The position numbers and the translations under genes are program-made. From Escherichia coli (GTDB lineage Bacteria; Pseudomonadota; Gammaproteobacteria; Enterobacterales; Enterobacteriaceae), in the NCBI RefSeq assembly GCF_016026235.1, contig NZ_CP065613.1: a DNA stretch of 64,000 bases; one strand, written 5' to 3'. Numbering within the stretch: the first letter of the stretch is position 1; each line of letters starts with the position of its first letter. The notes under the pieces were generated by a model. The model worked only from the letters and a program-made list of their open reading frames with translations, had not been told where the DNA came from and ran no database searches. Positions 31,198 to 56,779 of this stretch are shown here, piece by piece.

Positions 31198-31863
31198 TTA
31201 ATGCAGGCAGCACTGCTTAAATTTCTTACCACTACCGCACGGGCAAGGATCGTTACGCCCCGGTTTCTCTTCTGCTTTGATCGGTTGCTGAACAGCTTTT
31301 TCCTGCGGATGCGCCATCCAGTACGCATGTAGATCAAGCGCCGCCAGTCGAATGGCATCTACGCTCTCTTCAAACGCTTCTGGCGACATTTTCTCTACCC
31401 GCTCGAAGTTTTCCTCAGTACCGTGCAGCGCAATCGCCTCCAGCGCTGGTTTTAACGAATCGGGCAACGTTGACCAGTCAGAAAGTGCCACGCCCCGCAT
31501 ATAGCCAAAGCACCACTCCTCAACAATCGTCAGCTCGCTGCCATCAACTTCTCGCAAGCCGAATAACGGCTCAAACTGCTCCGGGAATTCGTTCAGACGC
31601 TCTGCGGTATCGGCCATATGTTGAAAAGCCAGGTTCATAAAGCGCGTCATCTCTTTCTCTGACGCCCAGCGCGGCACATAGTCAGCCCCACCCCACACGG
31701 CAACCAGCCACTGTGCCGGTTCAATCTCTTGCGGAGAACTCAACACCGCCGTCAATAAACCGTCCAGCTCCGCCACATCAAGGATGGCGTGGTCAGTGTT
31801 GTATTTGGTCAGAATATCGTCCAGCCATTCCAACTCACTTTCGTTTAACGGTCCCGTTTTCAT
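31198..31863 (-). CDS. yecA: UPF0149/SEC-C-motif protein YecA (221 aa)
   Basis: Full-length match; C-terminal metal-binding SEC-C motif [20 protein letters not shown]. Confidence 0.93.
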
Positions 31864-32576: not shown

Positions 32577-33773
32577 ATGACCGAATCCAGCGATTACGAA
32601 TCCGTCCAGGTCTTTATCGGCGTTGATGTCGGTAAAGATACGCATCACGCTGTTGCCATTAATCGTTCAGGTAAACGCCTGTTCGATAAAGCATTACCCA
32701 ACGACGAAAACAAACTCAGGTCGCTAATATCTGACCTGAAACAACATGGTCAGATACTGCTGGTTGTTGATCAGCCAGCTACCATCGGTGCGTTACCTGT
32801 CGCCGTTGCCCGCTCAGAAGGAGTCCTTGTCGGATACCTCCCTGGACTGGCCATGCGCCGCATAGCCGACTTACACGCCGGTGAAGCTAAAACTGATGCT
32901 CGTGACGCTGCCATCATTGCCGAAGCTGCCCGTACCCTGCCTCACGCGCTACGCACGCTGAAACTGGCTGACGAGCAAATCGCCGAACTCTCCATGCTCT
33001 GCGGCTTCGATGATGATCTTGCCGCACAGACAACGCAGGCCAGCAACCGTATCCGCGGCCTTCTGACCCAGATACATCCGGCACTGGAGCGCGTTCTCGG
33101 TCCGAGACTTGAGCACCCGGCGGTACTCGATCTTCTCCAGCGATATCCCTCACCAGAAAAACTCGCTTCGCTGGGTGAGAAGAAGCTGGCAGCCCAGCTC
33201 TGCAAACTTGCGCCTCGTCTGGGTAAACGCCTTGCAGCAGACATAGCTCAGGCACTGGCCGAACAAACCGTCGTCGTTCCCGGCACGAATGCCGCTGCCG
33301 TAGTACTGCCACGTCTGGCACTCCAGCTCATCACGCTGCGTAAGCAAAGAGACGAGGTGGCGCTTGAGGTAGAACAGCGAGTTCTTGCTCACCCTCTTTA
33401 CCCGGTCCTGACCAGTATGCCCGGAGTCGGTGTCAGGACCGCAGCCAGACTCCTCACCGAGGTCGCCTGCCGCGCCTTCGCCTCTGCCGCACATCTCGCT
33501 GCTTATGCTGGCCTTGCGCCGGTAACTCGGCGATCCGGCTCGTCAATACGCGGTGAGCATCCCTCGCGACGGGGTAATAAAGCTCTCAAACGGGCGTTGT
33601 TCCTGTCGGCCTTCGCCGCGCTCAGGGATCCGCTCTCCAGGGCTTACTACACCCGCAAAATGAGTCAGGGAAAACGACACAATCAGGCGCTTATCGCCCT
33701 GGCGAGACGACGCTGCGACGTTCTGTTCGCCATGATGCGCGACGGGACTTTTTATACCCCGCAGGGGTCATAA
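32577..33773 (+). CDS. IS110-family transposase/recombinase (398 aa)
   Basis: N-terminal RuvC-like DEDD motif VFIGVDVGKDTHHAVAIN and C-terminal Transposase_20-type block PGVGVRTAARLL; RBS AAGGGAGA upstream of the ATG. Confidence 0.85.
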   Translation: MTESSDYESVQVFIGVDVGKDTHHAVAINRSGKRLFDKALPNDENKLRSLISDLKQHGQILLVVDQPATIGALPVAVARSEGVLVGYLPGLAMRRIADLHAGEAKTDARDAAIIAEAARTLPHALRTLKLADEQIAELSMLCGFDDDLAAQTTQASNRIRGLLTQIHPALERVLGPRLEHPAVLDLLQRYPSPEKLASLGEKKLAAQLCKLAPRLGKRLAADIAQALAEQTVVVPGTNAAAVVLPRLALQLITLRKQRDEVALEVEQRVLAHPLYPVLTSMPGVGVRTAARLLTEVACRAFASAAHLAAYAGLAPVTRRSGSSIRGEHPSRRGNKALKRALFLSAFAALRDPLSRAYYTRKMSQGKRHNQALIALARRRCDVLFAMMRDGTFYTPQGS

Positions 33774-34053: not shown

Positions 34054-36396
34054 TGTTCTTATTACCTTTAACTAATTATGCCAATTCAGACTCAAACGCT
34101 GCATCATTCGCTTCAGCCTCTGCGCCATCAATTAATGCCAAGACTCGGTCAAGAAAGCGTTGCGCTTCGTATACATCTGTTGCTTGCCGCAGATAATGAG
34201 GTATTCGTTCAACAAACTCGGAACGTGATAAAGGCTGATGTTCCAGCAAAGCCTCAAGCATTGCGGGCCGCAACAAACGACGATCAGCATCAACATTAGG
34301 AAGCTCAACCTCAATGACATGTGTGGCAAAATACTTAAGTTGCTCCTTAAGCCCCAAATTGGGCATAAGAGAATCAATTGAGTCAGACGCCACTTCAGCG
34401 CTTGACTCAATCGTTTCGACATATTCACAGGAAGGTACAACAACGTCTGGAGCCAATGTTTTAAGCTCATGGAGTTTACGGATAATCGGAGATAGAACCT
34501 CATCAGGATTACTGAACCAATCAGTGGACCAAATGCGGCTAATTCTCCAACCCAAACGCTCCAGAACCTCTTGACGCAAACGGTCACGATCACGAGCAGA
34601 TTTAGCTGAGTGATAAGCCGCACCATCACACTCTATGCCCATTAAGTAACGGCCAGGACAACCTGGATCTTTCACAGCTAGATCAATAAAGAATCCTGCA
34701 ACCCCTACCTGAGGTTCACACTCAAACCCAGCGTGATTGAGTGCTTCCATTACAGCAACCTCAAAGTCACTATCTGGAGCCCTGCCGGTATGCGTTGTGA
34801 GGGAATCTAGTTTGCCACTTTCGGCAAACTGTAAAAAACCTTTCAACGAAATAACACCAAGTTTACTGGTTTCACTCGTCAATACATCTTCAGAACGCAT
34901 TGAACTAAACACATGCATCCGTTTTTTTGATCGAGTGAAAAGCACATTCAAGCGACGCCAGCCAACATCGGAATTGATAGGTCCAAAGCGTTGATAAACC
35001 TTTCCACCATGCTCAGAAGGTCCATAGGTAAAGGAAATAAAGATTACATCACGCTCATCCCCTTGAACGTTCTCAAGGTTTTTCACAAAAAGTGGCTCTT
35101 CCATGGCATATAAGCCATCGATTGCATCGTTAAATTCAGGGCGATTTCGGCGCAATTCATCGATAGCGCGCTCAATTTGATCGCGTTGCTTGGAACTCAT
35201 GGCCACTACCCCGAGTGACTCACCCGGCCGGTGTTGCGCATGATGAAGTACGGCCTCAGCAACTGCTTGGGCTTCTTCAATATTGTGTTGATTGGAGAAC
35301 CGACCTTTTGACACATAGGTAAATTTAATCCCATACTCTGGAGACTCAGCATTTGGGGAAGGGAATATCACCAAATCACTGTTATAAAAATGGCGGTTAG
35401 AGTATGCAATCAACTTTTCATGTCGTGAACGATAGTGCCAACGCAAACGTCTCATAGGAAACAGTGGCAAAGCAGCATCCAAAATGCTGTCAGTATCACT
35501 TAAAGCCGCGGCATCATCGTCATCTTCTCCGTCGGCACTTCGATCAAAGAAACTGGTTGGTGGTAGCTGTTTCGGGTCACCAACGACCACTAGTTGCTTG
35601 CCCCTCGCGATGACACCCAATGCATCCTCTGGCTTCACCTGAGACGCTTCGTCCATCACCACCAGATCAAATTCCATTCGTCCAGGTTCTAGGTAATGAG
35701 CTGCTGACATTGGCCCCATCATGAAACAAGGTTTAATTGCAACCAGCGCATTACATGCACGGTTAACCAATTGCCTAATTGGAATATGTCTGGTTTTTTT
35801 ACCCAACTCATTTTTGATCAAAGCTAGTTCTGTATATTCACTTTTCTTACCACCAGAATTCCCTTCTGGTATATTTCGGTAAGCAATTTTTGCTGCAATC
35901 CGCTGACGTTGTAATTCAATCAGTTTTTTGTCGTAATCTTTAAATGACTTCTGCAAAGCATTGCGCTGTGAGCCGGAAACTCTCATCAATTCAGGGTGGA
36001 TGTGAATAACCTCCCGCGCCAGCTGGTCATGAATTGCTAATGCTAAACCCAATTCAACTTTTTCAATCGGGAGCGAGCCCGCAAGTACAGCACTCCAGAT
36101 TCGCTGCAATCCATTTTCATGCATCTGCTCGTAACAACGAATAAAGTTAACCCACCCGTTCAACCAACGGGGTTGCTGTATTGCTCTTTCGTTGCGCTCG
36201 ATTAATGTATTAAGAGAACCATCAGTCGACTTGAGCCACTGACTCCGCTCTAACTTTGTTTCTAGCGCATATAACTCAGCATTTTTAATCTGTTCATTCC
36301 ATTTCGAAACTATTTCCCCACCATCACGACATAGTAAATCGGGTGATGCTGCCAACTTACTGATTTAGTGTATGATGGTGTTTTTGAGGTGCTCCA

Positions 36397-36672
36397 GTGG
36401 CTTCTGTTTCTATCAGCTGTCCCTCCTGTTCAGCTACTGACGGGGTGGTGCGTAACGGCAAAAGCACCGCCGGACATCAGCGCTATCTCTGCTCTCACTG
36501 CCGTAAAACATGGCAACTGCAGTTCACTTACACCGCTTCTCAACCCGGTACGCACCAGAAAATCATTGATATGGCCATGAATGGCGTTGGATGCCGGGCA
36601 ACTGCCCGCATTATGGGCGTTGGCCTCAACACGATTTTACGTCACTTAAAAAACTCAGGCCGCAGTCGGTAA
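36397..36672 (+). CDS. insA: IS1 protein InsA
   Basis: [43 protein letters not shown]... matches InsA. Confidence 0.9.
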
Positions 36673-37094
36673 CCTCGCGCATACAGCCGGGCAGTGACGT
36701 CATCGTCTGCGCGGAAATGGACGAACAGTGGGGCTATGTCGGGGCTAAATCGCGCCAGCGCTGGCTGTTTTACGCGTATGACAGTCTCCGGAAGACGGTT
36801 GTTGCGCACGTATTCGGTGAACGCACTATGGCGACGCTGGGGCGTCTTATGAGCCTGCTGTCACCCTTTGACGTGGTGATATGGATGACGGATGGCTGGC
36901 CGCTGTATGAATCCCGCCTGAAGGGAAAGCTGCACGTAATCAGCAAGCGATATACGCAGCGAATTGAGCGGCATAACCTGAATCTGAGGCAGCACCTGGC
37001 ACGGCTGGGACGGAAGTCGCTGTCGTTCTCAAAATCGGTGGAGCTGCATGACAAAGTCATCGGGCATTATCTGAACATAAAACACTATCAATAA
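36591..37094 (+). CDS. insB: IS1 transposase InsB reading frame (expressed as InsAB by -1 frameshift)
   Basis: ORF matches InsB (...[21 protein letters not shown]...); overlaps insA in the -1 frame. Confidence 0.85.
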
Positions 37095-40000
37095 GTTGGA
37101 GTCATTACCAGTAAATCGTAATCACTACCACTAGCCAAATGTCTGATCTGGGTAGCCAAGGATACGCAATTTATCTTATCAACCAGTTGCTCGGCAAAAT
37201 TCAGCGTGTCGTTAATAGTGTCTAACGTCAGTTGATTATTTTTATACGCACCGCAAGCCAATGGGGTTAATTGTAAAAACGCCCCTAACTGTAACGAGTC
37301 ATTTTCAAGGGATATCTGAAGATCGTTTATGTTTTGCAAAATCTCGGAGGAATGAGTCATCTGCTCTAATGATATATCTGGATTGATAAACCATCCCTGC
37401 AAGGCAATGAGAGTATTCCGCACCTGTCGGTAAGATTGCATCAATACACCTTGCTCACCTAACCAAGATGCATGTTCTTCCAACAAGCTAGAAATACGCG
37501 GTAATAACTTAGCCTCGTGCTCGACCCGTTTAACCAAAGTCATTAATCTTGAGCTAATCTGCGATTTCTCGATTAAATGCACACCTTTGATAATCTCACC
37601 ATCTAGGTTAATTAATCCAGAGCCTATCGCAACTCGCTTTCCAAAACCTATCCCGTAACAAGCTCGGACCTTCTTGTACCAATCACGCAATAACATGAGT
37701 TGTTCACAGTCGGTGTCCAACCCTCGGAATGCATTACCAAGTTGATTACCAAAGTCACTTTGTTCAAACCGTTGTAACAGCTCCGAATACTTGAGCAAAT
37801 CAGCTGAGCAGCGTTTTAACTCAGCAAACTTAGTGTCAGGCTTACGAGATTGCGCCATGAGCAGTGCCTTGGCACTACGCCAATCACTCTTAAACCATGC
37901 AAATAATCCCCCTTGCTGGATAACAGCAACGGCATGCGCGAGCATCTCTTGGGAAGGCAACTGGTCCAATTGATACAAAGTAGATAGACCATCTCTTAAA
38001 GGACGCAATGTTTCGATTTGACACATTAAGTCGCGCAATACTGCATCGATATCATCATCATCAAAAAGAGGATCTCGAACTCTAATAAGCTCAGTCGGTA
38101 AAGCACCCAGAATCGACAACAACTCAGAGCAGAATAGCAATCCAGCTTGCGAATCATCGATATACGAAGCAATACCATCTGGCAAAGCATTTTTGAAATC
38201 GTTTAATTGCGCATAAATAGATGATAACTCATCATGAATTGATTGGATGGATTCAAGCCACCTGACCAAATCACGTAAAGTGAAATCCTCTGCTGCACCA
38301 TATTTTTCCAGCTCTTCACGAGGAAAGTCACACGATTGTCCTTGTTCTAAAAGTCGTAGCTTTTGAGGCTCGATAACCTGGCTCAAGGCCACATAATGAC
38401 CTTGTAGCAACTCGAACCTATCTAAATAGTGACGCACCCGTGCAATGGCATCGAGTGAATCTAGCTCACTAAGTGCTGGGAAATGCTCTGAACCACACAA
38501 CACTGGAAGATTCGACTGATCTTCTACCAATTGCTCAATATATTGAAGCGTATTAAGGCTTTCGCCTTCTAACGCCCACTTATCTACATATTCTTGATAG
38601 CTATGTTGAAAGTCGATAATTGATGTCTGCCAAGTTTGTAGCAAATCGACTATACGAGCGCTGTCAAACAATTGAATTTGTGTGTTATTCACACCGCTCC
38701 AAGGGTGCTCATATATTTCTGCATTAGCCCCCACCTGCTCACGAACCTCTTTGTAGATGCGGCTAAACTCTACTATTTGGTCACGCAGCCGTAATTGGGT
38801 CACTTTATCCAACTGCTTCCCGGAAAGGTTTTCGATATGAAGTGCTGTTGCATCAATATCTAATTTGTGACGATAACGTGTTGCACCACTCAAAATCTGA
38901 TGGATCGTTTTGCCTGTTTGCGCCCATTGGTTATTGATCAATGCGGCATATTCATTGAGCTGCTGCTTAAGATCTTCATAACGCAAAATCTGAGCATCAA
39001 TCTCTTCCATAGTAGGCATGGTCGCCTGACTCACCAAGCGAGCATTAATATCATCCAGCACCTTGCGCTTATGAGTTTTATGACTGTGCAACTCTAAGCA
39101 AAATTGACCTAGCCCCGCACGATCCAAGCGACGTTTGACGACCTCCAGTGCAGCCATCTTCTCTGCCACAAACAGGACTTTCTTACCGTTGAGCAGAGCT
39201 GCTGCAATCAAGTTGGTGATCGTTTGTGATTTGCCACTACCAGGAGGGCCCTCAATGACTAAGTTTTGACCACGGATAGCATCGATCAACGCACTGTGCT
39301 GCGAGCTATCCGCATCATCGATTAGTGGAACCTTGTCATGAATATCAGGGTAACTATCGATGCAGTACTCATGCTGACCGAAGCCACCAGGTAAGCCGGA
39401 ATTCTCTTGACCACAGCTCTGACTGGTGAAAAAGCGACGAATTACTTCATGAGACAATATATTGCGCTTGTCACAAGGCCAGCGGGCAGGATCGAGGTCA
39501 AGATACATCATCATCTTGCCAAAATTGAGCAAGCTAAGTGCACCATAACGTTTCACAGACCATTTAGGTTTGTGCTGCTCTACAACCTTCTTCACCGAAG
39601 CAAAATAAGACTCTGGAGTTTCCTCTTCATTGAACAAAGGAAGAGCGAGGCCAAAGTCAGCCTGAAGTTTTTCCTTCAAAGAGAGATTGGGCAAAATATC
39701 TTCACCCGTGTAATAAAGTTGAAACTTGTAAAGACCATCCTTCGGATCTAATTTTCCTCGTTCACATCTCACCGGAATTGTAAATAACGGTGCATAACGT
39801 GCCTTTTCAGAGGAATCGCTTTCATACCACTCAAGGAACCCTAACGCCAAATACAAGATGTTGGCGCCACTCTCCTCCAAAGCAGTTTGAGCCTTACCAT
39901 AGATGGCGCGCAAACAAGCTTCCAGTTCATTTGGATAAAGCAGAGCCTGTATCCGATTATCGTCATGAGAGGAATTGGAAGAAGATATACTAATCTCATT

Positions 40001-40774
40001 CCCAGCCTTTGCCTGTCGTTCAAAATCCTCAAGCCCTTCATAGCCTGCTAAGCAGCACGCCTCCTTCAACGCTGACAAAGCTATACCTTGATTAACGTAT
40101 TCAGAACGAATCCCTGTTAATTTTCCATTCTGGCCTTGGGCATATTGCAAGATAAACTGATGGGCTTTTTCCAGCAACTCTCTATCTGAATCAGAAACAA
40201 CCGTTTTATGGCTATCTGGTAAATCAAAATCTGTACGGATTCCTAAGACGTGCGCCCAATCCTTAGCGCTAGGATGAGCTCTTAACTGTATATCTTTACC
40301 ATCTGGCCCAACTTTGAGATAGCCATGCTCTAACAGCTGCGCTCTAGTTGGATCGGGCACAGGAGCAAATTCCATCGGGATTTCCGAGCAAAGGGTTTCA
40401 TAAAGCTGTTCTGGTAATTCATCAACAATACGTAGTGAAGACCCTTTTTGAGTGATAGGGAAATTCAAAAGTCGATTTCGAGACGTAAGGTCCAATAACT
40501 TCTTACGCATAGCCTCGAGGGAAGTCAGAATAAAATCTGAGCCTCCTTGATTGAGTTCCTCTGCTGTAGAGGTATCTACAGTCGACATAATGTTCTCCAT
40601 TTCTTAGGGTCCACAAGTAAAACGTTTTATGCTGATGCATCACAAAAAGACCGCAGTAAACTGCTGCAAAGAAGAGGAGATTTTTAGTCTCCCCTTCTTT
40701 ATCAATCAGATCATACAATCAACTTAACGCCCATTAGTTGATAGCAGCCAAATTTCATAAACAGATTCAATCCG

Positions 40775-42817
40775 TTATTGCTGAATTTGATTGGATAGTA
40801 AGACCTGCAACATATCTTGTTGATGCTCAGCTATCTCATCTTCCAGCCAACGACCTTTATCTTTCATCAGCCGAATCATAGCAAGCAATTTAAGACTATC
40901 AGTCTGGTTATTGGCAAGGCTTGCTTCAAAGTGCTCCTGCTTCTGTTGCGGCTGGAAGTTACTCAAGCGCGAGTTCTTGCTGTGGCTGATAAGGCAAAGG
41001 TTGCCAAACGAATGGAGTGCACTCTGCTCAACCGGTTTATAGCCATCCATCGGATGCTGGGGTGAGAAGTGCTCCACCGAGCTGCGGAAAGTGAACTCAA
41101 AGGAGCCAGCAACTTTGTCGCTATTCCGATCTCGTACCCACAGCAGATAGTCGAGGAAGTTGAAGACAAAGTTGTTCTCGATATGACCGAAGCGAAGTTT
41201 GGATGTAATCACCTTGTGCCAACTCTCATCCACATTGATGGCGGGCAACAGGGCGTTATCAAGGTAGAGCATCTGGTAATAGGAAGCCCCTTCACCAGGC
41301 GCCAAAAAGCGCTGGAAGACAAAGCGGCGAGCCTGACTCTCCAGATAGGACAGATAAGCCCCGGCATCCACCGGTTGATCAGGGTGACAATTGTCGAACA
41401 GATATCTCAGTGCACCATTCAGCCAATGTTTGTAAACCAGGGTCGGGGTCGACACATGAAACGCCGACAGCAACATCAGGACCCGCCGGTTAACACCAGA
41501 GAAACCATTCTCATTTTCATCCTTGTCAAAGGTATTGATGTAACTGACGCTCTTTTCCGAATACCAGTGCAGCCGCTTCAGACTCCAACTATCCTTGCCA
41601 TCGGCAAACTCGCGCTTGATGATGAACTGATCAAACAGATACTTGCTCTTTAACAGGCCATAGATAAAACGCTGAACTGCCGCTACTGGATCCGGTTGCC
41701 TTATCACTCGCAGCTCAAACTGATCGACCAGTTGTTTATCATCAAGCGGCACCCCCTCCGTATCACCCGGGTCGCGGCTCACGAGTCGCAGCACATGGAG
41801 CAAGAAGTTGGAGAAGTTGATGACGCTGTTAAAGCGCTCGGAGCCTGCGCTCTCCTCCTCCACCGTCTGCTCACCATCAAGCTTGTCATCCTGCAAAATG
41901 GCCAACAAGGTGCGCCCTTGGCTACCGGCAGCTGCACGGCTTTTATCGGCAGCGTCGGCCGTGTTTGGGGATCCTAGCAGTTCAAGCAGATGGGCAAAAT
42001 CACGGGGCACAAACTGACCCCAGTCGCTCTCACCAAACAGACGGTGGCGCTCTTGCGGGGTAAAGCCGTACTGGATATAGCGCTCCATATTGGCGCAGGC
42101 ATCCCATACCCGAGTCAGGATATGAATACTTTGGCGACGATGCTCTTCCTCGGGTATCTGGTTCAGCGTCTCCATCAGCCGCGCCTTGATCACTTCATGC
42201 TTTTCCAACTGCTCGCCGCGATTGTTCATCGCCTCGAAGAAGTGATTGAGATCGGTATCCTTGGGTACTTCGATACGAGAGATCTGCACATGCTTGAAGA
42301 GGTAGTCGCAAAAGGCCGTCAGTTTAGCCCCTACCAAACCAAGATCCGCCATTGCCTTGCCAATCAGCTCAAAACCGTTCACCAAACCTTCATTGAAGGT
42401 ACTCCCCCGCAAATCGTAGGGGGCAACACCCTGCCATAAGCGCTCGAAGGTATGGCTCGATATCGGGCGACTCTCAAAAGCGAGGTTGATGGTCTGATAC
42501 CAGCTCATATCCACCGAATCTATCGCGTGATGTTTGAGCCAATTGGCCAGCAGAGAGAGGGTAGTAAAGCGCTGCTGGCCATCGATTACCTCGAAACTGC
42601 CATCGTCCCGGGCAAACACCACCAGGGTGCCGATATAGTAGGTTTGCGGCCCCTTACCACTGACCAATTTTTGCTGATAATCCAGCACATCCTGCAGCAG
42701 CTGGGTGATCTCTCCCTCACCCCAGGCATAGTTGCGCTGGTACATGGGCACCAGATAGCGGGCGCGATCTTCAAGCAGTGCACGAATGGAAAAGGGGCGA
42801 ACGCCTGCATCATTCAT
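40775..42817 (-). CDS. DUF262 + DUF1524 (HNH-like) protein, GmrSD-family type IV restriction-like (680 aa)
   Basis: N-terminal DUF262 motifs ([26 protein letters not shown]) and C-terminal HNH-type block ([19 protein letters not shown]). GC-rich compared with the AT-rich island cargo. Confidence 0.75.
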
Positions 42818-44264
42818 AATATTTCATCTCCCGAAACAGCCCGACCAGCTCATCTTCGGCACCATTGCGATTGTTCTTGTTCTCTCGACTGCTCATGCTA
42901 GGCAAAGGGAAGCCGTGCAGATCTCCCGGCAGACGAGCATCACGAATGGCACGGATCAGATTGTGCTCCAGCACATAGTTATCCATGGTTGCCAACTGCA
43001 CTACCTGCTGGCGGATGCGGCAGCGATAGGCCCAGATAAAGCACTTCTCGATGGCCAGTGACAGCCCTTGGCTGCCGAACTTGTCGATATAGAAGATCAG
43101 TGCGCAGTCGAACATGGCCCGCACATAACGATCCCCGGTGCGGTGGCGACGCTCGTAGCTGCCCAGGGTCGATAGCACCTTGCTGGCCATCGGTGTCAGC
43201 GTTTCGCCGAGCAGGGTGGCAGATTGCGCCTTGCCGGAATCAGACTCCTCGGCCACGATGGCGGCCACCCGCGTCTGGTAGTACTCGGCCATCTCGAAAA
43301 AGCGCCGACCATTGATGATCATCTGGTCGAGATGAAAGGGAAACGTCATGTACTGGCCGTCAATCTTGCGCTGGTACTGGCGGTTGTACTCATCGACAAA
43401 GTGGTGGGCGATGCGCAGCGACTCCACGTAAGGATAATGCCCTACCCGATCTAGGTTGACCCCCTTGAAGAGATCCACCTCCCCCTTGCCAAAGTAGCGG
43501 GCCGACTTGCCCTCGGCCCACTGGCGTACCCGATAGAGATAGAGGGCGAACAGATTGGCCAGCTCGTCGCTTGGCAGGCGCTCCCAATGGGCGACCGCCT
43601 CGGCCTTGAGATTGGCCTCATGACCGGCAAACTCGCGCAGGTGAAATGCCTTGAGCAGATCGTGAGGAGCCAGATCGCGCCCCCGGGCATTTTGCGAATC
43701 GAAGAACTGGAACGCCTCCGAGATATCCTGCAGTACAAAGCAGACCACCTGACAGCGGTTGAGCAGAAAGTCAATTTGCTGCTCGTCAAACTCAGGGCGG
43801 GCCACCAGCCGACGCAACTCCAGATAGTTGCGTCTGAGGTTGAACTCCGAATCCCGGCTGGGGAAGCGCTGGCGCTGCATAAACGCATCGATAGGTCCAC
43901 GCAAGACCTGCAATTGCTCACGCAGATCCTGACGTTGAAACCGGATACTCTTCTCTTTGCCACTGCGATTTTCGTTATCCAGCACCTCGATCAGCGCCTT
44001 GACGGTCAACATCAGGGTCAGGGTGCGTTGCTGACCATCGACGATATCAAGCATCTCGCCCTGCTCACTATCGGTGTGCTGATGAAACACCACCGAGCCC
44101 AGCCGGTAGGCGCTCTTGTCCTGATGGGTTGCCAAATCGGTAAAGAGATCCGAGATATTCTTGGAGCCCCAGCGGTAAGGTCGCTGATAGCTTGGGATGG
44201 CCAGTTGGGGAATGGCCAGCAACTGGCGTACCGACTGCACTTGATTATTAATGCTCTCCATCAT
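42810..44264 (-). CDS. DUF262 (ParB-like nuclease/NTPase domain) protein (484 aa), partner of the downstream DUF262-DUF1524 gene
   Basis: Motifs [17 protein letters not shown] and [12 protein letters not shown]; 3' end overlaps the downstream gene start by 8 nt. Confidence 0.7.
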
Positions 44265-44276
44265 GCCTCCTGCGGT

Positions 44277-44887
<611 letters not shown>

Positions 44888-49007: not shown

Positions 49008-49691
49008 TCAATGCAGACAGCACTTCTTAAATTTTTTACCGCTGCCACACGGACACGGGTCATTTCGCCCGGGCATGTTTTCTGCCCCCTTCACTGGAAC
49101 AGGCCGGGATGATGCCTCTGACATTCTCACCGACAACCAGTGCTGGTAAAGCGCCAGTGCCGCAGGCTGAATGAGAGTAATACTCTGTTCAAATTGAACA
49201 GGTGACATTTTCTCAACCACTGGGAAGTTCTTTTCGATACCATGAAGGGCTATCGCCTCCAGCGAGGGACGTAAGGCCTCTGGCAAGGCTGACCAGTCAT
49301 CCAGAGACCGGCCTTTCATATACCCGAAACACCACTCTTCGACGATTGTATATGTCTTCCCCTTCACCTCACGTCCATTGAAAATCGGTTCAAACTGTTC
49401 AGGGGCCTCATACAGGCAGCCAGCGATATCGTTCATATGCTGAAAACACAGCCCCACAAAACGCGTCATCTCTTTTTCAGTGGTCCAGTGAGGGTAGTAG
49501 TCACCTCGCCCCCAGATAGCACTAAGCCAGGTATTAGGGGGGATCATATTCGGGCCAGAGACAATCGCTGTCAGAAAGCCATCCAGCTCAGAGAAACAGA
49601 GCACAGAGTCATCATTGCCGTATTTCAGCAACACCTCTTCCAGCCAGTCGATTTCCCGGTCAATCAGCGGCCCGCTTTTCGTCAGTTTCAT
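49008..49691 (-). CDS. YecA-family (UPF0149) SEC-C-motif protein paralog embedded in the type I R-M operon (227 aa)
   Basis: Aligns along its length with chromosomal YecA (31198..31863), including the C-terminal [20 protein letters not shown]; start ATG overlaps the hsdS stop (ATGA). Confidence 0.85.
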
Positions 49692-52730: not shown

Positions 52731-53966
52731 TTGATGCCCTTTGATAGTAATGATGACCGTCAATGTGATTCCCCTGCTGACTGGAGGTCTCCGGATAGTA
52801 TGAGTATTACCAACTGCGTTATCGGCCCACTTTACGATGAGCAAATAAAAAAAACACTTATGTATGCTGACCATAAATTCAAGCGGCTAATGAATACACG
52901 AATGTCGTTACTCGAACATTTATCACCCCACTATGACTTATCTTCCATGTTCAGCTATGAGTTGGAGGGAAGAGTTTTTCGGATTAAATTGATCAAGCCT
53001 GAGATTAAATTATCTCGCCAGCAGTTGATCTTCTCCTCACTCTTTTTAGAGCAAGATTTTCTAAAAGAATATAAAAAACACATCTCAAATACTCTACAAA
53101 AAACAATCAAACAGTGCATTAAAAAATACAAACAAAAAATCAAAATCGAGCCTTCTATTTTAGATTACATATCAGCGTCACCCCGCAATACGTCGAGTTA
53201 TGTATTACATGAGATAGTTTCTCAATGTGAACATTGCGATGAAATTCGCAATATTAAAAATGATATATTGCTTGATGAACTAACGTTGAATGGCCGGATC
53301 ACTAACATTTCAAAATACATTAAAAACAGTCAAGATAAAATCGTCGAACATATAGAGTTCTGCACTCATAAACTTGTCAATATAAGTCGTAAGAATCGTC
53401 ACATTTTCAACAGCACCACAATCTCTGGCAGAAAACCCAACATCACTGGTGTTTTACTTTGCCTTTCAGAATTGATAAGCAACCTGCATATTTACCCAAC
53501 TGAAATTAATAATATAAGCAATGCCATAATATTAAGCATTGTATACTCTGTACTTCAACATCTTCAATCCGGAAGAAAAACAGAAAAAACAAAAACCTCT
53601 CCAGCACTGGATTTCATCCCCACCATCATCGCACCTCATGTTTTCTACCTGGCGAAACGCGAAAAATCCTCTCAATATAAATACATTGAAAAAGAATATC
53701 TTCTCGGCCAGTTACTTATATTTTTGATGTATAAAACAGTTTACTACTCGATTCATAACATCAGGGTAAGCCGTAAGCATTTCTATAACGATATAAAACC
53801 AAAATTAATGATACTAAAAAAAGAAAGCTTATTAAGCACCAATTTCATGAAAAATCGAAGAGAGATTAGTGGTGAAGTCTTTGGTGATGTTGGTAGTATT
53901 GAGGCTGATTTTCGAGAAATCAGCACATTGATTCATCGGCGAAAGGCTCTGTTTATTTCCTTTTAA
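52731..53966 (+). CDS. AT-rich hypothetical protein (411 aa), no recognisable motif
   Basis: Long ORF in a strongly AT-rich segment; Lys/Ile/Asn-rich product; start codon uncertain (the first ~25 codons are GC-richer than the rest). Confidence 0.55.
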   Translation: MMPFDSNDDRQCDSPADWRSPDSMSITNCVIGPLYDEQIKKTLMYADHKFKRLMNTRMSLLEHLSPHYDLSSMFSYELEGRVFRIKLIKPEIKLSRQQLIFSSLFLEQDFLKEYKKHISNTLQKTIKQCIKKYKQKIKIEPSILDYISASPRNTSSYVLHEIVSQCEHCDEIRNIKNDILLDELTLNGRITNISKYIKNSQDKIVEHIEFCTHKLVNISRKNRHIFNSTTISGRKPNITGVLLCLSELISNLHIYPTEINNISNAIILSIVYSVLQHLQSGRKTEKTKTSPALDFIPTIIAPHVFYLAKREKSSQYKYIEKEYLLGQLLIFLMYKTVYYSIHNIRVSRKHFYNDIKPKLMILKKESLLSTNFMKNRREISGEVFGDVGSIEADFREISTLIHRRKALFISF

Positions 53967-54368: not shown

Positions 54369-55499
54369 ATGTTCGAGAAAATGAAAAACAATGTAACCCG
54401 TATGCCGGGGAATTTAACAAAACTTAATCAATACCAAAAAGACATTGATCACCTGTCTAAACTATTTTCTGAACAGCAATTACTGGAACTAATGACGACT
54501 ACCGAATCCGATCAAATATTGCAAATGAAGCCTGCTGTAGATATTCTTCATGTACTATCTCCATCAGCATCTACTGCTAAGCATATCAATTTTTTTCAGC
54601 ACGTCCCAGTGCTCGAACAATGGTTAAAAAAGGAGTGCACTGCCTTTAATTTACTGGCAGTACATTTCTATTCACAGCAATCCCGTAAAAATGTAATTCC
54701 GAAAGAAATCTGTATGCTACTGGATGCATTTATTGAAACTGAACTTTCATCTGCGGTTAATGGTAATAATAATGCCGAACTCCTTTCTTGTTTTCAAAAC
54801 ACGCTGGATAAAATGTGCAATACACTAACATTTATAGACCACACAGTTACGGAACAATCAGGTCAAGTAGCAATGCTTGATTTCAGCGCAAAAATGCATG
54901 AATATACTGTTGAAATCAGGACCTTTTTGAAGTCTGAATACTGGCTAAACAAACTACCTAAGGATATTAACATTCCAGCCATTGACCTATCCTGGCTTGT
55001 GTTTTGTTACTTTTGCTCTGAATATCTTTTTGTATTTATTCAAACAACGCTCAATACAATGAAGGCAGGAAAAATCATTCGTGATAACTACCTTTATCAT
55101 CCTAAAATGATTGCATTGATCATTTTATCTATGCTGCCTTATGAAGTCATTCATAACGATGGATCACTGAATAAGTTTAAAACGCCTTTAACCAGCCCTG
55201 ATGAGTTCATAATCAAATCTATTTGCATTAAAGGTAAGCAAAACACTACAGGGCATAAAAAAGATATAGAACAATTGCTTCGTAAGACATATATCTATAT
55301 TGCATTACTCTTAAACCCTGAGTGGGCACCATCTTCCAAGGAGTTGATTTCCTTTTTATCAGGAAAGTCCTCAGTGATAAGTGGTTCACTCAACTTCCAG
55401 TCAACCTCCAGTGGTCTGGGTGTTCAAACAAACAATATAACTCTTCTTAAGAATGAGGTTTACTTCGAAAAAATAGCGAACAAGATCATGAAACTGTAG
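54369..55499 (+). CDS. AT-rich hypothetical protein (376 aa), no recognisable motif
   Basis: Long ORF in an AT-rich segment; RBS-like GAGGA upstream of the ATG. Confidence 0.55.
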   Translation: MFEKMKNNVTRMPGNLTKLNQYQKDIDHLSKLFSEQQLLELMTTTESDQILQMKPAVDILHVLSPSASTAKHINFFQHVPVLEQWLKKECTAFNLLAVHFYSQQSRKNVIPKEICMLLDAFIETELSSAVNGNNNAELLSCFQNTLDKMCNTLTFIDHTVTEQSGQVAMLDFSAKMHEYTVEIRTFLKSEYWLNKLPKDINIPAIDLSWLVFCYFCSEYLFVFIQTTLNTMKAGKIIRDNYLYHPKMIALIILSMLPYEVIHNDGSLNKFKTPLTSPDEFIIKSICIKGKQNTTGHKKDIEQLLRKTYIYIALLLNPEWAPSSKELISFLSGKSSVISGSLNFQSTSSGLGVQTNNITLLKNEVYFEKIANKIMKL

Positions 55500-55642: not shown

Positions 55643-56779
55643 ATGCCTATTCTGGATCTGCGTTTCAGCAACAAATCAATTCACCAACTTCCACATCCCC
55701 TCACGGGTTGTCAGGAATACCGTGATATTCACTGCCAAAACCTGCGTGCTCTGGTGTATCCCAATCGGATCACGCTGGCCTTTCGTGCCACTATAAACAA
55801 TCAGCGTATATATGAAACCCTGGGTCAGTTCCCTCAGCTCTGCGTTGAGGATGCCCGTCAGCATGTGATGAAACTGCTTGCTGATAAAAATCGTCTTGCG
55901 GTTCAGTCCCGTCGATTCACTGTGGAACAGGCCATCAATGACCTGTGGCTACCGGATTTGCAGTTGTATAAAAAGAGTCCTCAGTCAGAGTTGTCAAAAC
56001 TCAACCTCTACGTTCGCCCGTTCTGGGGCAAGCGGCAACTTCGCGACATCACGGCAGGAGAACTAGAACAATATGCTGCTGGCTTACGGGAAAAATTACG
56101 TCCGTCAACAGTAAACCGTATCCTCGCAATATTGTCCAAAATATGCTCTCTGGCAGTACGTGCTGGATGGATCACACATTCCCCGATGTCACATGTCCGC
56201 TATCTGAAAGAAAATAACATTCGCTATCGCACACTGTCAGCGACAGAAATCCCGCGCTTTATTGACGCGGCAACAGCGCTGCAAACACCGGCAGCTGATT
56301 CTATATTGCTTGCTCTTTATACGGGGATGCGTATTGGTGAGGTATGTACCCTGAAATGGGAGTACTGGCACCCGGATATGCATCAACTCATACTGCCTGA
56401 TACAAAGTCCGGACACCCTTTCACCTGCCCACTTGCACCTCCAGCCATTGCAGTTGTCCAGTGCCAGCAGGACCTGATGCTCAGCAAAACTTACATTTTT
56501 CCACAACTAACCGACAATGCCCGCCCTCTGGCATATCCGCGTGCAACCTTTGCCCGTATTTGCCGGGATGCCGACATTGATAACCTGCGGATGCATGACC
56601 TGCGCCGTACCTTTGCCACCCGGGTACTACAGGCGACCGGGGATATTGCAATCGCTTCCCATCTGCTAAATCACCATTCACTCACGGCGACCCGTCGCTA
56701 CGCTTTTCACAATGCAGCGACATCACACGCAGTGGTTTCTCAGGTCATAGAAAGTTATGACACAAAAATGAACCTATGA
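55643..56779 (+). CDS. int: Tyrosine recombinase / phage-type integrase (378 aa)
   Basis: C-terminal catalytic motifs (MRIGEVCTLKW, HDLRRTFATRVL, LNHHSLTATRRYAFH) and an N-terminal arm-type region (FSNKSIHQLP). Confidence 0.85.
   Translation: MPILDLRFSNKSIHQLPHPLTGCQEYRDIHCQNLRALVYPNRITLAFRATINNQRIYETLGQFPQLCVEDARQHVMKLLADKNRLAVQSRRFTVEQAINDLWLPDLQLYKKSPQSELSKLNLYVRPFWGKRQLRDITAGELEQYAAGLREKLRPSTVNRILAILSKICSLAVRAGWITHSPMSHVRYLKENNIRYRTLSATEIPRFIDAATALQTPAADSILLALYTGMRIGEVCTLKWEYWHPDMHQLILPDTKSGHPFTCPLAPPAIAVVQCQQDLMLSKTYIFPQLTDNARPLAYPRATFARICRDADIDNLRMHDLRRTFATRVLQATGDIAIASHLLNHHSLTATRRYAFHNAATSHAVVSQVIESYDTKMNL

Follow-up and report, generated by a model that had tools for sequence, protein, structure and literature searches.

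A two-gene locus of Escherichia coli is very probably an allele of the type IV restriction enzyme GmrS1/GmrSD2, of the same family as Vibrio cholerae TgvAB

Two described systems lie closest to the gene pair analysed here. The first is the type IV (modification-dependent) restriction enzyme of E. coli ECOR17, GmrSD_ECOR17, whose proteins GmrS1 and GmrSD2 correspond to clusters CLS_004 and CLS_003 respectively (Nat Commun 2025, PMC12373910). Neither gene is dispensable, nor is the nuclease site E582/H583: overexpression of GmrSD2 by itself did not protect, and truncation of GmrS1 ended defence (PMC12373910). The enzyme restricts T2, T6 and T4 lacking ip3, and is active only on T4 DNA carrying glucosylated hydroxymethylcytosine (hmC), while hmC-only and unmodified T4 are unrestricted (PMC12373910). 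The injected T4 protein Ip3 specifically neutralises it, and transposon insertions in GmrSD2 made wild ECOR17 sensitive to T4 lacking ip2 and ip3 (PMC12373910).

The second system is TgvAB (VC1767/VC1766), from VPI-2 of V. cholerae. Again both proteins are required, and the DGQQR motifs of both, together with the His-Me motif, are essential; the targets are T-even phages with glucosylated, and also arabinosylated, hydroxymethylcytosine (PMC11411939, PMC11014532). Mutants of T2 and T4 that lack glucosyltransferase escape (PMC11014532). The two-gene system, as published for proteins near-identical or homologous to those described below, is toxic at high expression and protects directly, not by abortive infection. 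The ECOR17 paper does not refer to TgvAB in its main text (PMC12373910).

More distantly, the single-chain enzymes EcoCT596 GmrSD, Eco94GmrSD, BrxU and HEC-06 also combine a DUF262 NTPase carrying DGQQR with a DUF1524/HNH nuclease, and like the two-gene systems they carry out modification-dependent restriction of T-even phages. Different T4 internal proteins block different members: Ip1 acts on CT596, Ip2 on BrxU/ECOR21, and Ip3 on the E. coli subtype of the pair, this last sensitivity being known for that subtype only and not for TgvAB.

The window, by which we mean the whole 64,000-nucleotide stretch of E. coli DNA that was analysed, contains two adjacent, co-oriented and overlapping open reading frames on the minus strand, as seen in the ORF list and the sequence. 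Gene A (gmrS1/tgvA-type) occupies 42810..44261 and encodes 483 residues, or 484 if translation begins at the ATG at 44264 (ORF 42810..44264). The second ATG, at 44261, is the more likely start, because it is the one used by PGAP, by the ECOR17 paper and by the Vogesella orthologue. Gene B (gmrSD2/tgvB-type), which was assigned from its ORF, Pfam domains, motifs and identity to ECOR17 GmrSD2, occupies 40775..42817 and encodes 680 residues. The end of A overlaps the beginning of B by 8 nt (42810..42817, minus strand, ATGAATGA), which implies translational coupling. This overlap is kept in all the loci that were fetched, namely those of V. vulnificus, Vogesella, Shewanella, Enterobacter and other E. 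coli.

Both proteins begin with a DUF262 domain (GmrSD_N in Pfam), at residues 21–208 of A (4e-28) and 12–215 of B (5e-29), and a motif scan located DGQQR at residue 75–76 of A and residue 79 of B, with the QR and FxxxN motifs in both. The C-terminus of B matches GmrSD_C/DUF1524 (residues 555–671, 5e-12), so that B reads as DUF262, a helical linker and a DUF1524 His-Me finger nuclease; its nuclease motif E582-H583...N606...N615 is invariant across a 27-sequence alignment. The domain searches proposed in the initial annotation thus bear out its statements that both genes carry a DGQQR-containing DUF262 domain and that the second adds an HNH-like DUF1524. Its description of the first gene as DUF262 alone has to be corrected: beyond the DUF262 domain, which is a ParB-like NTPase, A has a second Pfam domain, DUF7834 (residues 220–465, 2e-76), a conserved all-helical domain of 245 residues, and it has no nuclease motif. 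The initial annotation had also seen a GmrSD-like enzyme split into an overlapping pair. The overlap is real, but the two genes are not the S and D halves of GmrSD, since the pair consists of a nuclease-less DUF262 paralogue and a complete DUF262-DUF1524 protein.

Other resources add little. NCBIfam has no match for A or for B, and a literature search with "DUF7834" gave no match. PADLOC matched only part of the N-terminus, with models of HEC-06, Orf5 and SspE, and yielded no model specific to the two-gene system. A sequence search of the PDB gave no match for A, and for B matches to the DUF262 N-terminus only.

In comparison with ECOR17, A is identical to GmrS1 at 482 of 483 positions (99.8%), and B to GmrSD2 (APT18_07335) at 677 of 680 (99.6%). 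The four substitutions (R294 for S in A; E279 for D, R348 for C and E664 for V in B) all lie outside the motifs, and the two nucleases share the active-site numbering E582/H583. The ECOR17 paper describes two antisense ORFs with ends 84 and 244 bp before GmrSD2 begins, and these are matched exactly here, by plus-strand ORF ends at 42901 and 43061 relative to the start of B at 42817. The RefSeq accessions of A and B are found in the CLS_003/CLS_004 clusters of PMC12373910, B being WP_000995974.1 in the CLS_003 listing. It is concluded with high confidence that A and B represent an allele of GmrS1/GmrSD2, the type IV enzyme made of two proteins, and are members of one two-gene family with TgvAB. 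The pair and its biology are already known, and the earlier suggestion of a GmrSD/BrxU-like modification-dependent restriction module agrees both with the domains and with the 99.6–99.8% identity to the ECOR17 enzyme. From ECOR17 and TgvAB, the window allele is predicted to restrict phages with glycosylated hmC and to require both proteins for this.

The relationship with TgvAB is a distant one, and was analysed with residues 1–399 of TgvA and of TgvB, taken from Table S5 of PMC11411939. A is approximately 31% identical to TgvA in the DUF262 region, and B approximately 24% identical to TgvB over the 399 residues available; A with TgvA, and B with TgvB, form reciprocal-best BLAST pairs. V. cholerae TgvA is not among the best 120 matches of A, nor of the V. 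vulnificus protein. The layouts match nonetheless: in Pfam TgvA(1–399) consists of DUF262 and DUF7834, as A does, and in both systems this protein is followed by one with DUF262 and DUF1524. The same Table S5, published in 2024, quotes an E. coli homologue of VC1767 (TgvA) whose N-terminal ~90 residues match A. E. coli GmrS1/GmrSD2 and V. cholerae TgvAB are therefore placed in one two-gene family, in which a DUF262+DUF7834 protein is the common partner. The V. vulnificus pair is of the E. coli subtype (63% and 55% identity), and outside E. coli the nearest relatives come from Vogesella in the case of A (90% identity) and from Aeromonas in that of B (90–91%).

The single-chain enzymes are less similar. 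The resemblance to CT596 GmrSD is confined to ~85 residues around DGQQR, and GmrSD and BrxU are single polypeptides, whereas the pair cannot do without its second DUF262 protein, which lacks a nuclease. Two established classes were considered and set aside. B has the architecture of a canonical single-chain GmrSD (Machnicka et al. 2015), but GmrSD2 alone is not protective. The BrxU class is characterised by a BREX locus, close similarity to BrxU and restriction of unglucosylated hmC and 5mC, and the pair does not show these features.

The mark that is recognised might also be a different one, either phosphorothioate, as for SspE and DndI, or methylated or unglucosylated hmC, as for BrxU. In a fold comparison, SspE and DndI, both of them phosphorothioate sensors, were the solved structures nearest to modelled A, whether the full chain or DUF7834 by itself was compared, and SspE models are among the PADLOC matches. 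However, in sequence the similarity to SspE and DndI is restricted to the DUF262 N-terminus, and the matches as a whole are limited to generic DUF262 and scaffold features. SspE and DndI act alongside ssp or dnd modification genes, and there are none such at the pair: the annotation of 43.8 kb surrounding a 100%-identical locus has none, and none of the ORFs of at least 150 aa at 30–56 kb of the window was identified as ssp or dnd. The ECOR17 enzyme does not restrict hmC-only or unmodified T4, and T2 and T4 without glucosyltransferase evade TgvAB, and we regard a different mark as very improbable.

The order of genes leading to the pair is hsdM-hsdS-yecA-like-hsdR-M48-[IS1 and ISEc52 remnants]-A-B. 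The pair is flanked upstream by a type I restriction-modification (R-M)/M48 block and downstream by the helicase-nuclease Hhe. The Hhe gene of the window is broken by an IS1. As noted initially, the pair is richer in GC than its neighbours (A 56.7% and B 51.9%, compared to 45.3% for Hhe, 48.6% for the type I R-M block and 48.8% for the window), and GC3 follows the same pattern (A 72% and B 62%; Hhe 41%; hsdR/hsdM 57–58%). The proposed origin from a different, GC-rich donor is supported, with the closest relatives outside E. coli being from Vogesella for A and Aeromonas for B.

This position, between the R-M/M48 block and Hhe, raises the question of whether the pair works only in support of the type I R-M operon or of Hhe and is inactive alone. 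The homologous pairs of V. cholerae and V. vulnificus lie between hsdS and hsdR, and TgvAB alone gives 10–100-fold less protection than the whole five-gene cluster. However, given only the ECOR17 pair, or only tgvAB, a laboratory strain is protected, and a nuclease mutant of HsdR does not reduce protection; Hhe, moreover, is interrupted in the window. The pair is not embedded in the type I R-M operon here, as it lies 3' of hsdR-M48, behind the IS remnants. TgvAB owes its name to such embedding, but the authors of the TgvAB work found the two-gene pair 17 times more often outside type I R-M clusters than inside, and therefore embedding in such a cluster does not define the family. Homologous pairs without R-M genes or Hhe occur in Vogesella (adjoining a type I-E CRISPR-Cas locus), in Enterobacter (within an integrative element) and at a second E. 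coli site (between two IS1 copies). We consider it highly unlikely that the pair depends on either neighbour. The initial annotation had named, as an outcome that would speak against it, a larger known system whose other genes are missing; this is not what is found, as published assays show the two genes to suffice by themselves, and the neighbours of the pair vary.

The initial annotation placed the end of an IS3-family remnant 13 bp upstream of the first start codon, and this is correct. An ISEc52-like (IS3 family) right-end remnant occupies 44278..44524 (minus strand), comprising the C-terminus of orfB and an IRR ending ...CACTTCA, and in megablast it is approximately 97% identical to full copies. 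Alignments to full ISEc52 copies stop at window positions 44274–44282, and the end was set at 44278, on the terminal ...CA, which is 13 nt before the ATG at 44264 and 16 before that at 44261. All that remains of the native 5' leader is 44262..44277 (minus strand, taccgcAGGAGGcatg), which includes a Shine-Dalgarno sequence. When the upstream region is aligned with that of Vogesella, only the final bases ahead of the start codon are similar. Together with the distance of the IS end, this supports the earlier suggestion that the native promoter may have been replaced.

Beyond the ISEc52 remnant is a left-end fragment of IS1 (44525..44887, minus strand), containing the IRL with a promoter-like site and an intact 91-aa insA (ORF at 44557..44832, labelled by PGAP as IS1-like element transposase). 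The fragment points toward the pair, and its promoter-like site, found by consensus scan, is at 44880–44853 on the minus strand. It is a candidate source of low-level transcription into the pair. Between the IS end and the ATG, the consensus scan gave no convincing promoter. A second promoter-like site, at 44289–44260 with its −35 element in the ISEc52 inverted repeat and its −10 element over the start codon, was rejected as the promoter of A, because its transcript would begin at or past the ATG.

A pair with an IS end 13–16 nt from its start codon, its leader reduced to a Shine-Dalgarno sequence and no convincing promoter from there to the ATG could be a silent relic in the window, intact but unexpressed since ISEc52 removed the promoter. 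Several observations make this unlikely. The pair is present in 253 of 5426 complete E. coli genomes (~5%), and all 253 carry the same IS junction at an identity of at least 99%. The E. coli lineage has a fixed ISEc52/IS1 scar in the presumed place of the native promoter. From this count ECOR17 itself probably carries the scar; the ECOR17 genes were assayed without their native promoters, and the upstream scar is not described (PMC12373910). The chromosomal copy in ECOR17 must be expressed, since insertions in GmrSD2 sensitise the strain to T4 lacking ip2 and ip3. The A and B ORFs are intact in thousands of assemblies, which argues for selection. Read-through is possible from the co-oriented IS1 insA and from hsdR-M48, and leaky expression is enough, high expression being toxic. 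Our preferred reading is that of a functional, clinically widespread restriction system against T-even phages, one that bears on host range in phage therapy.

A model of how the two proteins work together can be proposed. Sequence comparison with hhalign aligns the families of A and B in DUF262 only (probability 99.2%), and the idea that DUF7834 is detectably homologous in sequence to the linker of B is unsupported. The fold comparison weakly suggests that DUF7834 resembles the helical scaffold of GmrSD-like enzymes. In the model A would be a nuclease-less GmrSD-like paralogue, made up of DUF262 and a helical DUF7834 scaffold. BrxU and SspE structures are homodimers; A and B would be produced in coupled amounts via the conserved 8-nt overlap and would work as a hetero-oligomer, in which A replaces one protomer of the homodimer and provides sensing or NTP-gated regulation, while B would be the nuclease that cuts incoming modified DNA. 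A search of the PDB and the literature found no structure or pull-down of an A/B heteromer. In E. coli the ISEc52 insertion 13–16 nt upstream would have taken out the native promoter, the pair probably being transcribed from the IS1 fragment and/or by read-through from hsdR-M48. A more far-reaching reading, possible but doubtful, is that GmrS1/TgvA is a degenerate GmrSD paralogue whose DUF7834 is the GmrSD helical scaffold minus the His-Me finger, that it forms with GmrSD2 an asymmetric heterodimer in place of the BrxU/SspE-type homodimer, and that the IS scar, having replaced the promoter, holds expression of the E. coli copy at a low, safe level. If this is true, it would explain why two proteins are needed, and one subunit would be free to evolve both as the sensor of the modification and as the target surface of Ip3.

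Two smaller features of the locus may be added. One of the loci compared (L013) has an intact IS copy at the position of ISEc52. At the other end of the pair, in the 174-bp gap 3' of the B stop, the consensus scan picked out a putative terminator-like hairpin followed by a T-run (40651..40669, minus strand), which may mark where the two-gene operon ends.

The feature at 40775-44264 consists of two minus-strand ORFs, 42810..44264 for the upstream gene A (484 aa from the first ATG) and 40775..42817 for its partner B (680 aa), which do overlap by 8 nt (ATGAATGA) as the initial annotation had it. HMM annotation with Pfam supports the domains that had been proposed, with GmrSD_N/DUF262 in both proteins (A residues 21-208, 4e-28; B residues 12-215, 5e-29) and GmrSD_C/DUF1524 in B (555-671, 5e-12), where the nuclease residues are E582-H583...N606...N615. 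The QR, DGQQR and FxxxN motifs are found in A and B alike. The description of A as DUF262 alone was wrong, as A also contains a DUF7834 domain (220-465, 2e-76).

By sequence, the pair is already characterised, under the names GmrS1 and GmrSD2 of E. coli ECOR17, described as "a distinct Type IV RE [that] requires two GmrS-like genes" (Nat Commun 2025, PMC12373910). Both ECOR17 protein sequences are printed in Supplementary Data 5 of that paper and were used for comparison: GmrS1 is identical to A at 482/483 positions (counted from the ATG at 44261) and GmrSD2 to B at 677/680. The residues changed in the nuclease-dead ECOR17 mutant, E582A/H583A (PMC12373910), are also found in B. In the ECOR17 locus two antisense ORFs run to points 84 and 244 bp upstream from the start of GmrSD2 (PMC12373910), and the window has plus-strand ORFs ending at 42901 and 43061, at exactly these distances upstream of the B start at 42817. 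The RefSeq proteins annotated at the pair in a 100%-identical genome, WP_000443937.1 and WP_000995974.1, are both listed in clusters CLS_004 and CLS_003 of the same paper. The feature is real and was rightly read as a GmrSD-like restriction module, though it was already published.

The published experiments (PMC12373910) indicate that neither gmrS1 nor gmrSD2 protects singly, while leaky expression of both restricts T2, T6 and T4 lacking ip2 and ip3. Induced expression is toxic, and defence is lost on truncation of GmrS1 or mutation of E582/H583. Among T4 variants, restriction is limited to phage with glucosyl-hmC; hmC-only and unmodified T4 escape. The specific blocker is T4 Ip3, Ip1 and Ip2 being without effect. 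Wild ECOR17 becomes sensitive when transposons insert in GmrSD2, which shows that its chromosomal copy is active. Sensing of phosphorothioates in the manner of SspE is contradicted by these substrate tests, and by the absence of annotated ssp and dnd genes from the 43.8 kb around a 100%-identical locus.

A related two-gene system, TgvAB, lies inside a type I R-M operon on VPI-2 of V. cholerae, and comprises TgvA (VC1767, DUF262) and TgvB (VC1766, DUF262 plus DUF1524). Both proteins are required, DGQQR is essential in each, and H571 and N602 of TgvB are essential too; protection is direct and covers Tevenvirinae whose hmC is glucosylated or arabinosylated, and T2 and T4 glucosyltransferase mutants evade it (PMC11411939, PMC11014532). 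We compared the first 399 residues of each protein (Table S5, PMC11411939). The best partner of A is TgvA, with 31% identity over DUF262 and a second segment in the C-terminal domain, and that of B is TgvB, with 24% identity over about 400 residues. TgvA(1-399) contains both GmrSD_N and DUF7834 (7e-38). The same table already listed an E. coli homologue among its VC1767 hits, AOT32537.1, whose quoted N-terminal ~90 residues match A. The E. coli pair therefore belongs to the TgvAB family as a distant member, and shares its architecture. TgvAB is not mentioned in the main text of the ECOR17 paper (PMC12373910), yet GmrS1/GmrSD2 and TgvAB are two names for one family. Joining these names is part of what the locus still has to offer; the rest lies in its fixed IS scar and in DUF7834, a domain so far unexplored.

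Our literature search found no mention of DUF7834, and a sequence search of A against solved structures gave no match. In a profile-profile comparison, the homology of A and B is confined to DUF262 (A 9-207 to B 9-214, probability 99.2%). AlphaFold2 predicts for A an alpha/beta DUF262 domain followed by an all-helical C-terminal domain (mean pLDDT 80.7, residues 269-307 disordered). The evidence for A as a GmrSD-like protein without the His-Me finger is consistent, though weak. Published work shows that the system is an NTPase-gated His-Me nuclease of two components, which destroys phage DNA bearing glycosylated hmC and is countered in T4 by Ip3 (PMC12373910, PMC11411939, PMC11014532). A and B would be translationally coupled and act as a hetero-oligomer, in which A would sense or regulate and B would cleave.

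The sequence 5′ of A reads ...TTGTTGACCACTTCA followed by TACCGCAGGAGGCATGATGGAG. By megablast against complete E. coli genomes, 44262-44530 matches full copies of ISEc52 (IS3 family) at ~97% identity. These alignments end at 44274-44282, and the IS end was placed at 44278, on the terminal ...CA. The distance from there to the first ATG (44264) is thus 13 nt, as had been noted, and to the second (44261) 16 nt. Translation more probably begins at the second ATG, which PGAP uses and which corresponds to the start of the Vogesella orthologue; this start also agrees with the 483-aa length of the ECOR17 protein. Upstream of A, the alignment with Vogesella shows similarity in only the final bases ahead of the start codon (TACC..AGGAGGC.TGATGGA), which suggests that the native promoter region was replaced, in line with the earlier suspicion. 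The ISEc52 remnant (44278-44524, 247 bp) is preceded upstream by an IS1 left-end fragment (44525-44887, 363 bp) with intact insA and a promoter-like site pointing toward the pair. Further upstream are genes for an M48/YgjP-like peptidase, hsdR, a YecA-like protein, hsdS and hsdM, all co-oriented. Because ISEc52 would have removed the native promoter, expression in E. coli would depend on IS1-derived or read-through transcription, and a low level would suit an enzyme that is toxic on induction. That the scar silences the pair is unlikely, given the native activity in ECOR17 and the intact ORFs in thousands of assemblies.

In another locus (L013, AP027637.1, 8250-9976), an intact ISEc52-like element with a 389-aa fused transposase lies immediately 5′ of gmrS1, within an IS1 copy that it interrupts. 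The two remnants in the window therefore look like a later deletion derivative of such an arrangement.

The full pair is present in 253 of 5426 complete E. coli genomes, all 253 sharing the IS junction at at least 99% identity, and the ECOR17 GmrS1 allele occurs in 19,711 indexed blocks of the assembly collection. The E. coli site is an island flanked by yecA and the leuZ-cysT-glyW tRNA genes. Elsewhere the setting varies: inside hsdM-hsdS-[A-B]-hsdR-M48 in V. vulnificus (63% and 55% identity), adjoining a type I-E CRISPR-Cas locus in Vogesella (A 90% identical), adjoining a type I R-M system in Shewanella, and within an integrative element in Enterobacter. The 8-nt overlap is kept in every homologous pair fetched from these settings and from another E. 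coli site. At that site (CP101210.1, 5046-14255), near lactate-utilisation genes, gmrS1-gmrSD2 lies between two co-oriented IS1 copies, with neither a type I R-M system nor the helicase-nuclease gene hhe beside it, a layout that hints at mobilisation as an IS1 composite-transposon-like unit. Judged from these settings, the pair is an autonomous cassette, which favours type I R-M neighbourhoods but does not need them, in agreement with the published sufficiency of the pair alone. Three observations contradict a dependence on the adjacent type I R-M system or on Hhe: that sufficiency, the differences in neighbouring genes among loci, and the disruption of Hhe in the window by IS1. The first two also speak against the pair being part of a larger system with missing genes, as the initial annotation had allowed.

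The pair is richer in GC (A 56.7%, B 51.9%) than the window (48.8%), the type I R-M block (48.6%) or the downstream hhe (45.3%), and GC3 is 72% and 62% vs 41% for hhe. Among named matches, the closest relatives outside E. coli are Vogesella for A (90%) and Aeromonas for B (90-91%), while A is only 73% identical to Aeromonas veronii and B 86% to Vogesella. This difference may reflect recombination between pair variants, or only uneven sampling of unnamed matches. Vogesella and Aeromonas are GC-richer than E. coli and the Vogesella pair has 55% GC, which fits the earlier proposal of a different donor.

The adjoining hhe (34076-40600, minus strand) encodes an anti-phage DUF4011 helicase-nuclease, 1911 aa when intact. 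It is split by IS1 at ~36360-37100 into fragments of 1170 aa (Hhe profile positions 1-1161) and 759 aa (1157-1911), and is unbroken in strain FDAARGOS_943 and in loci L010, L011 and L013. Within the type I R-M operon, between hsdS and hsdR, is a YecA-family gene (UPF0149 + SEC-C; 49008-49691, minus strand), which matches the PADLOC candidate defence family PDC-S12 (1e-97) and whose sequence resembles that of the chromosomal yecA (31198-31863) flanking the island. Two low-GC (34-40%) ORFs of 411 and 376 aa (52731-53966 and 54369-55499, plus strand), between hsdM and the island integrase (55643-56779), have no PADLOC match and could be further defence-island cargo. Between yecA and the 3′ end of hhe is a 398-aa transposase ORF (32577-33773, plus strand), which from its sequence looks to be of the IS110 family, and which is absent from the otherwise collinear FDAARGOS_943 locus.
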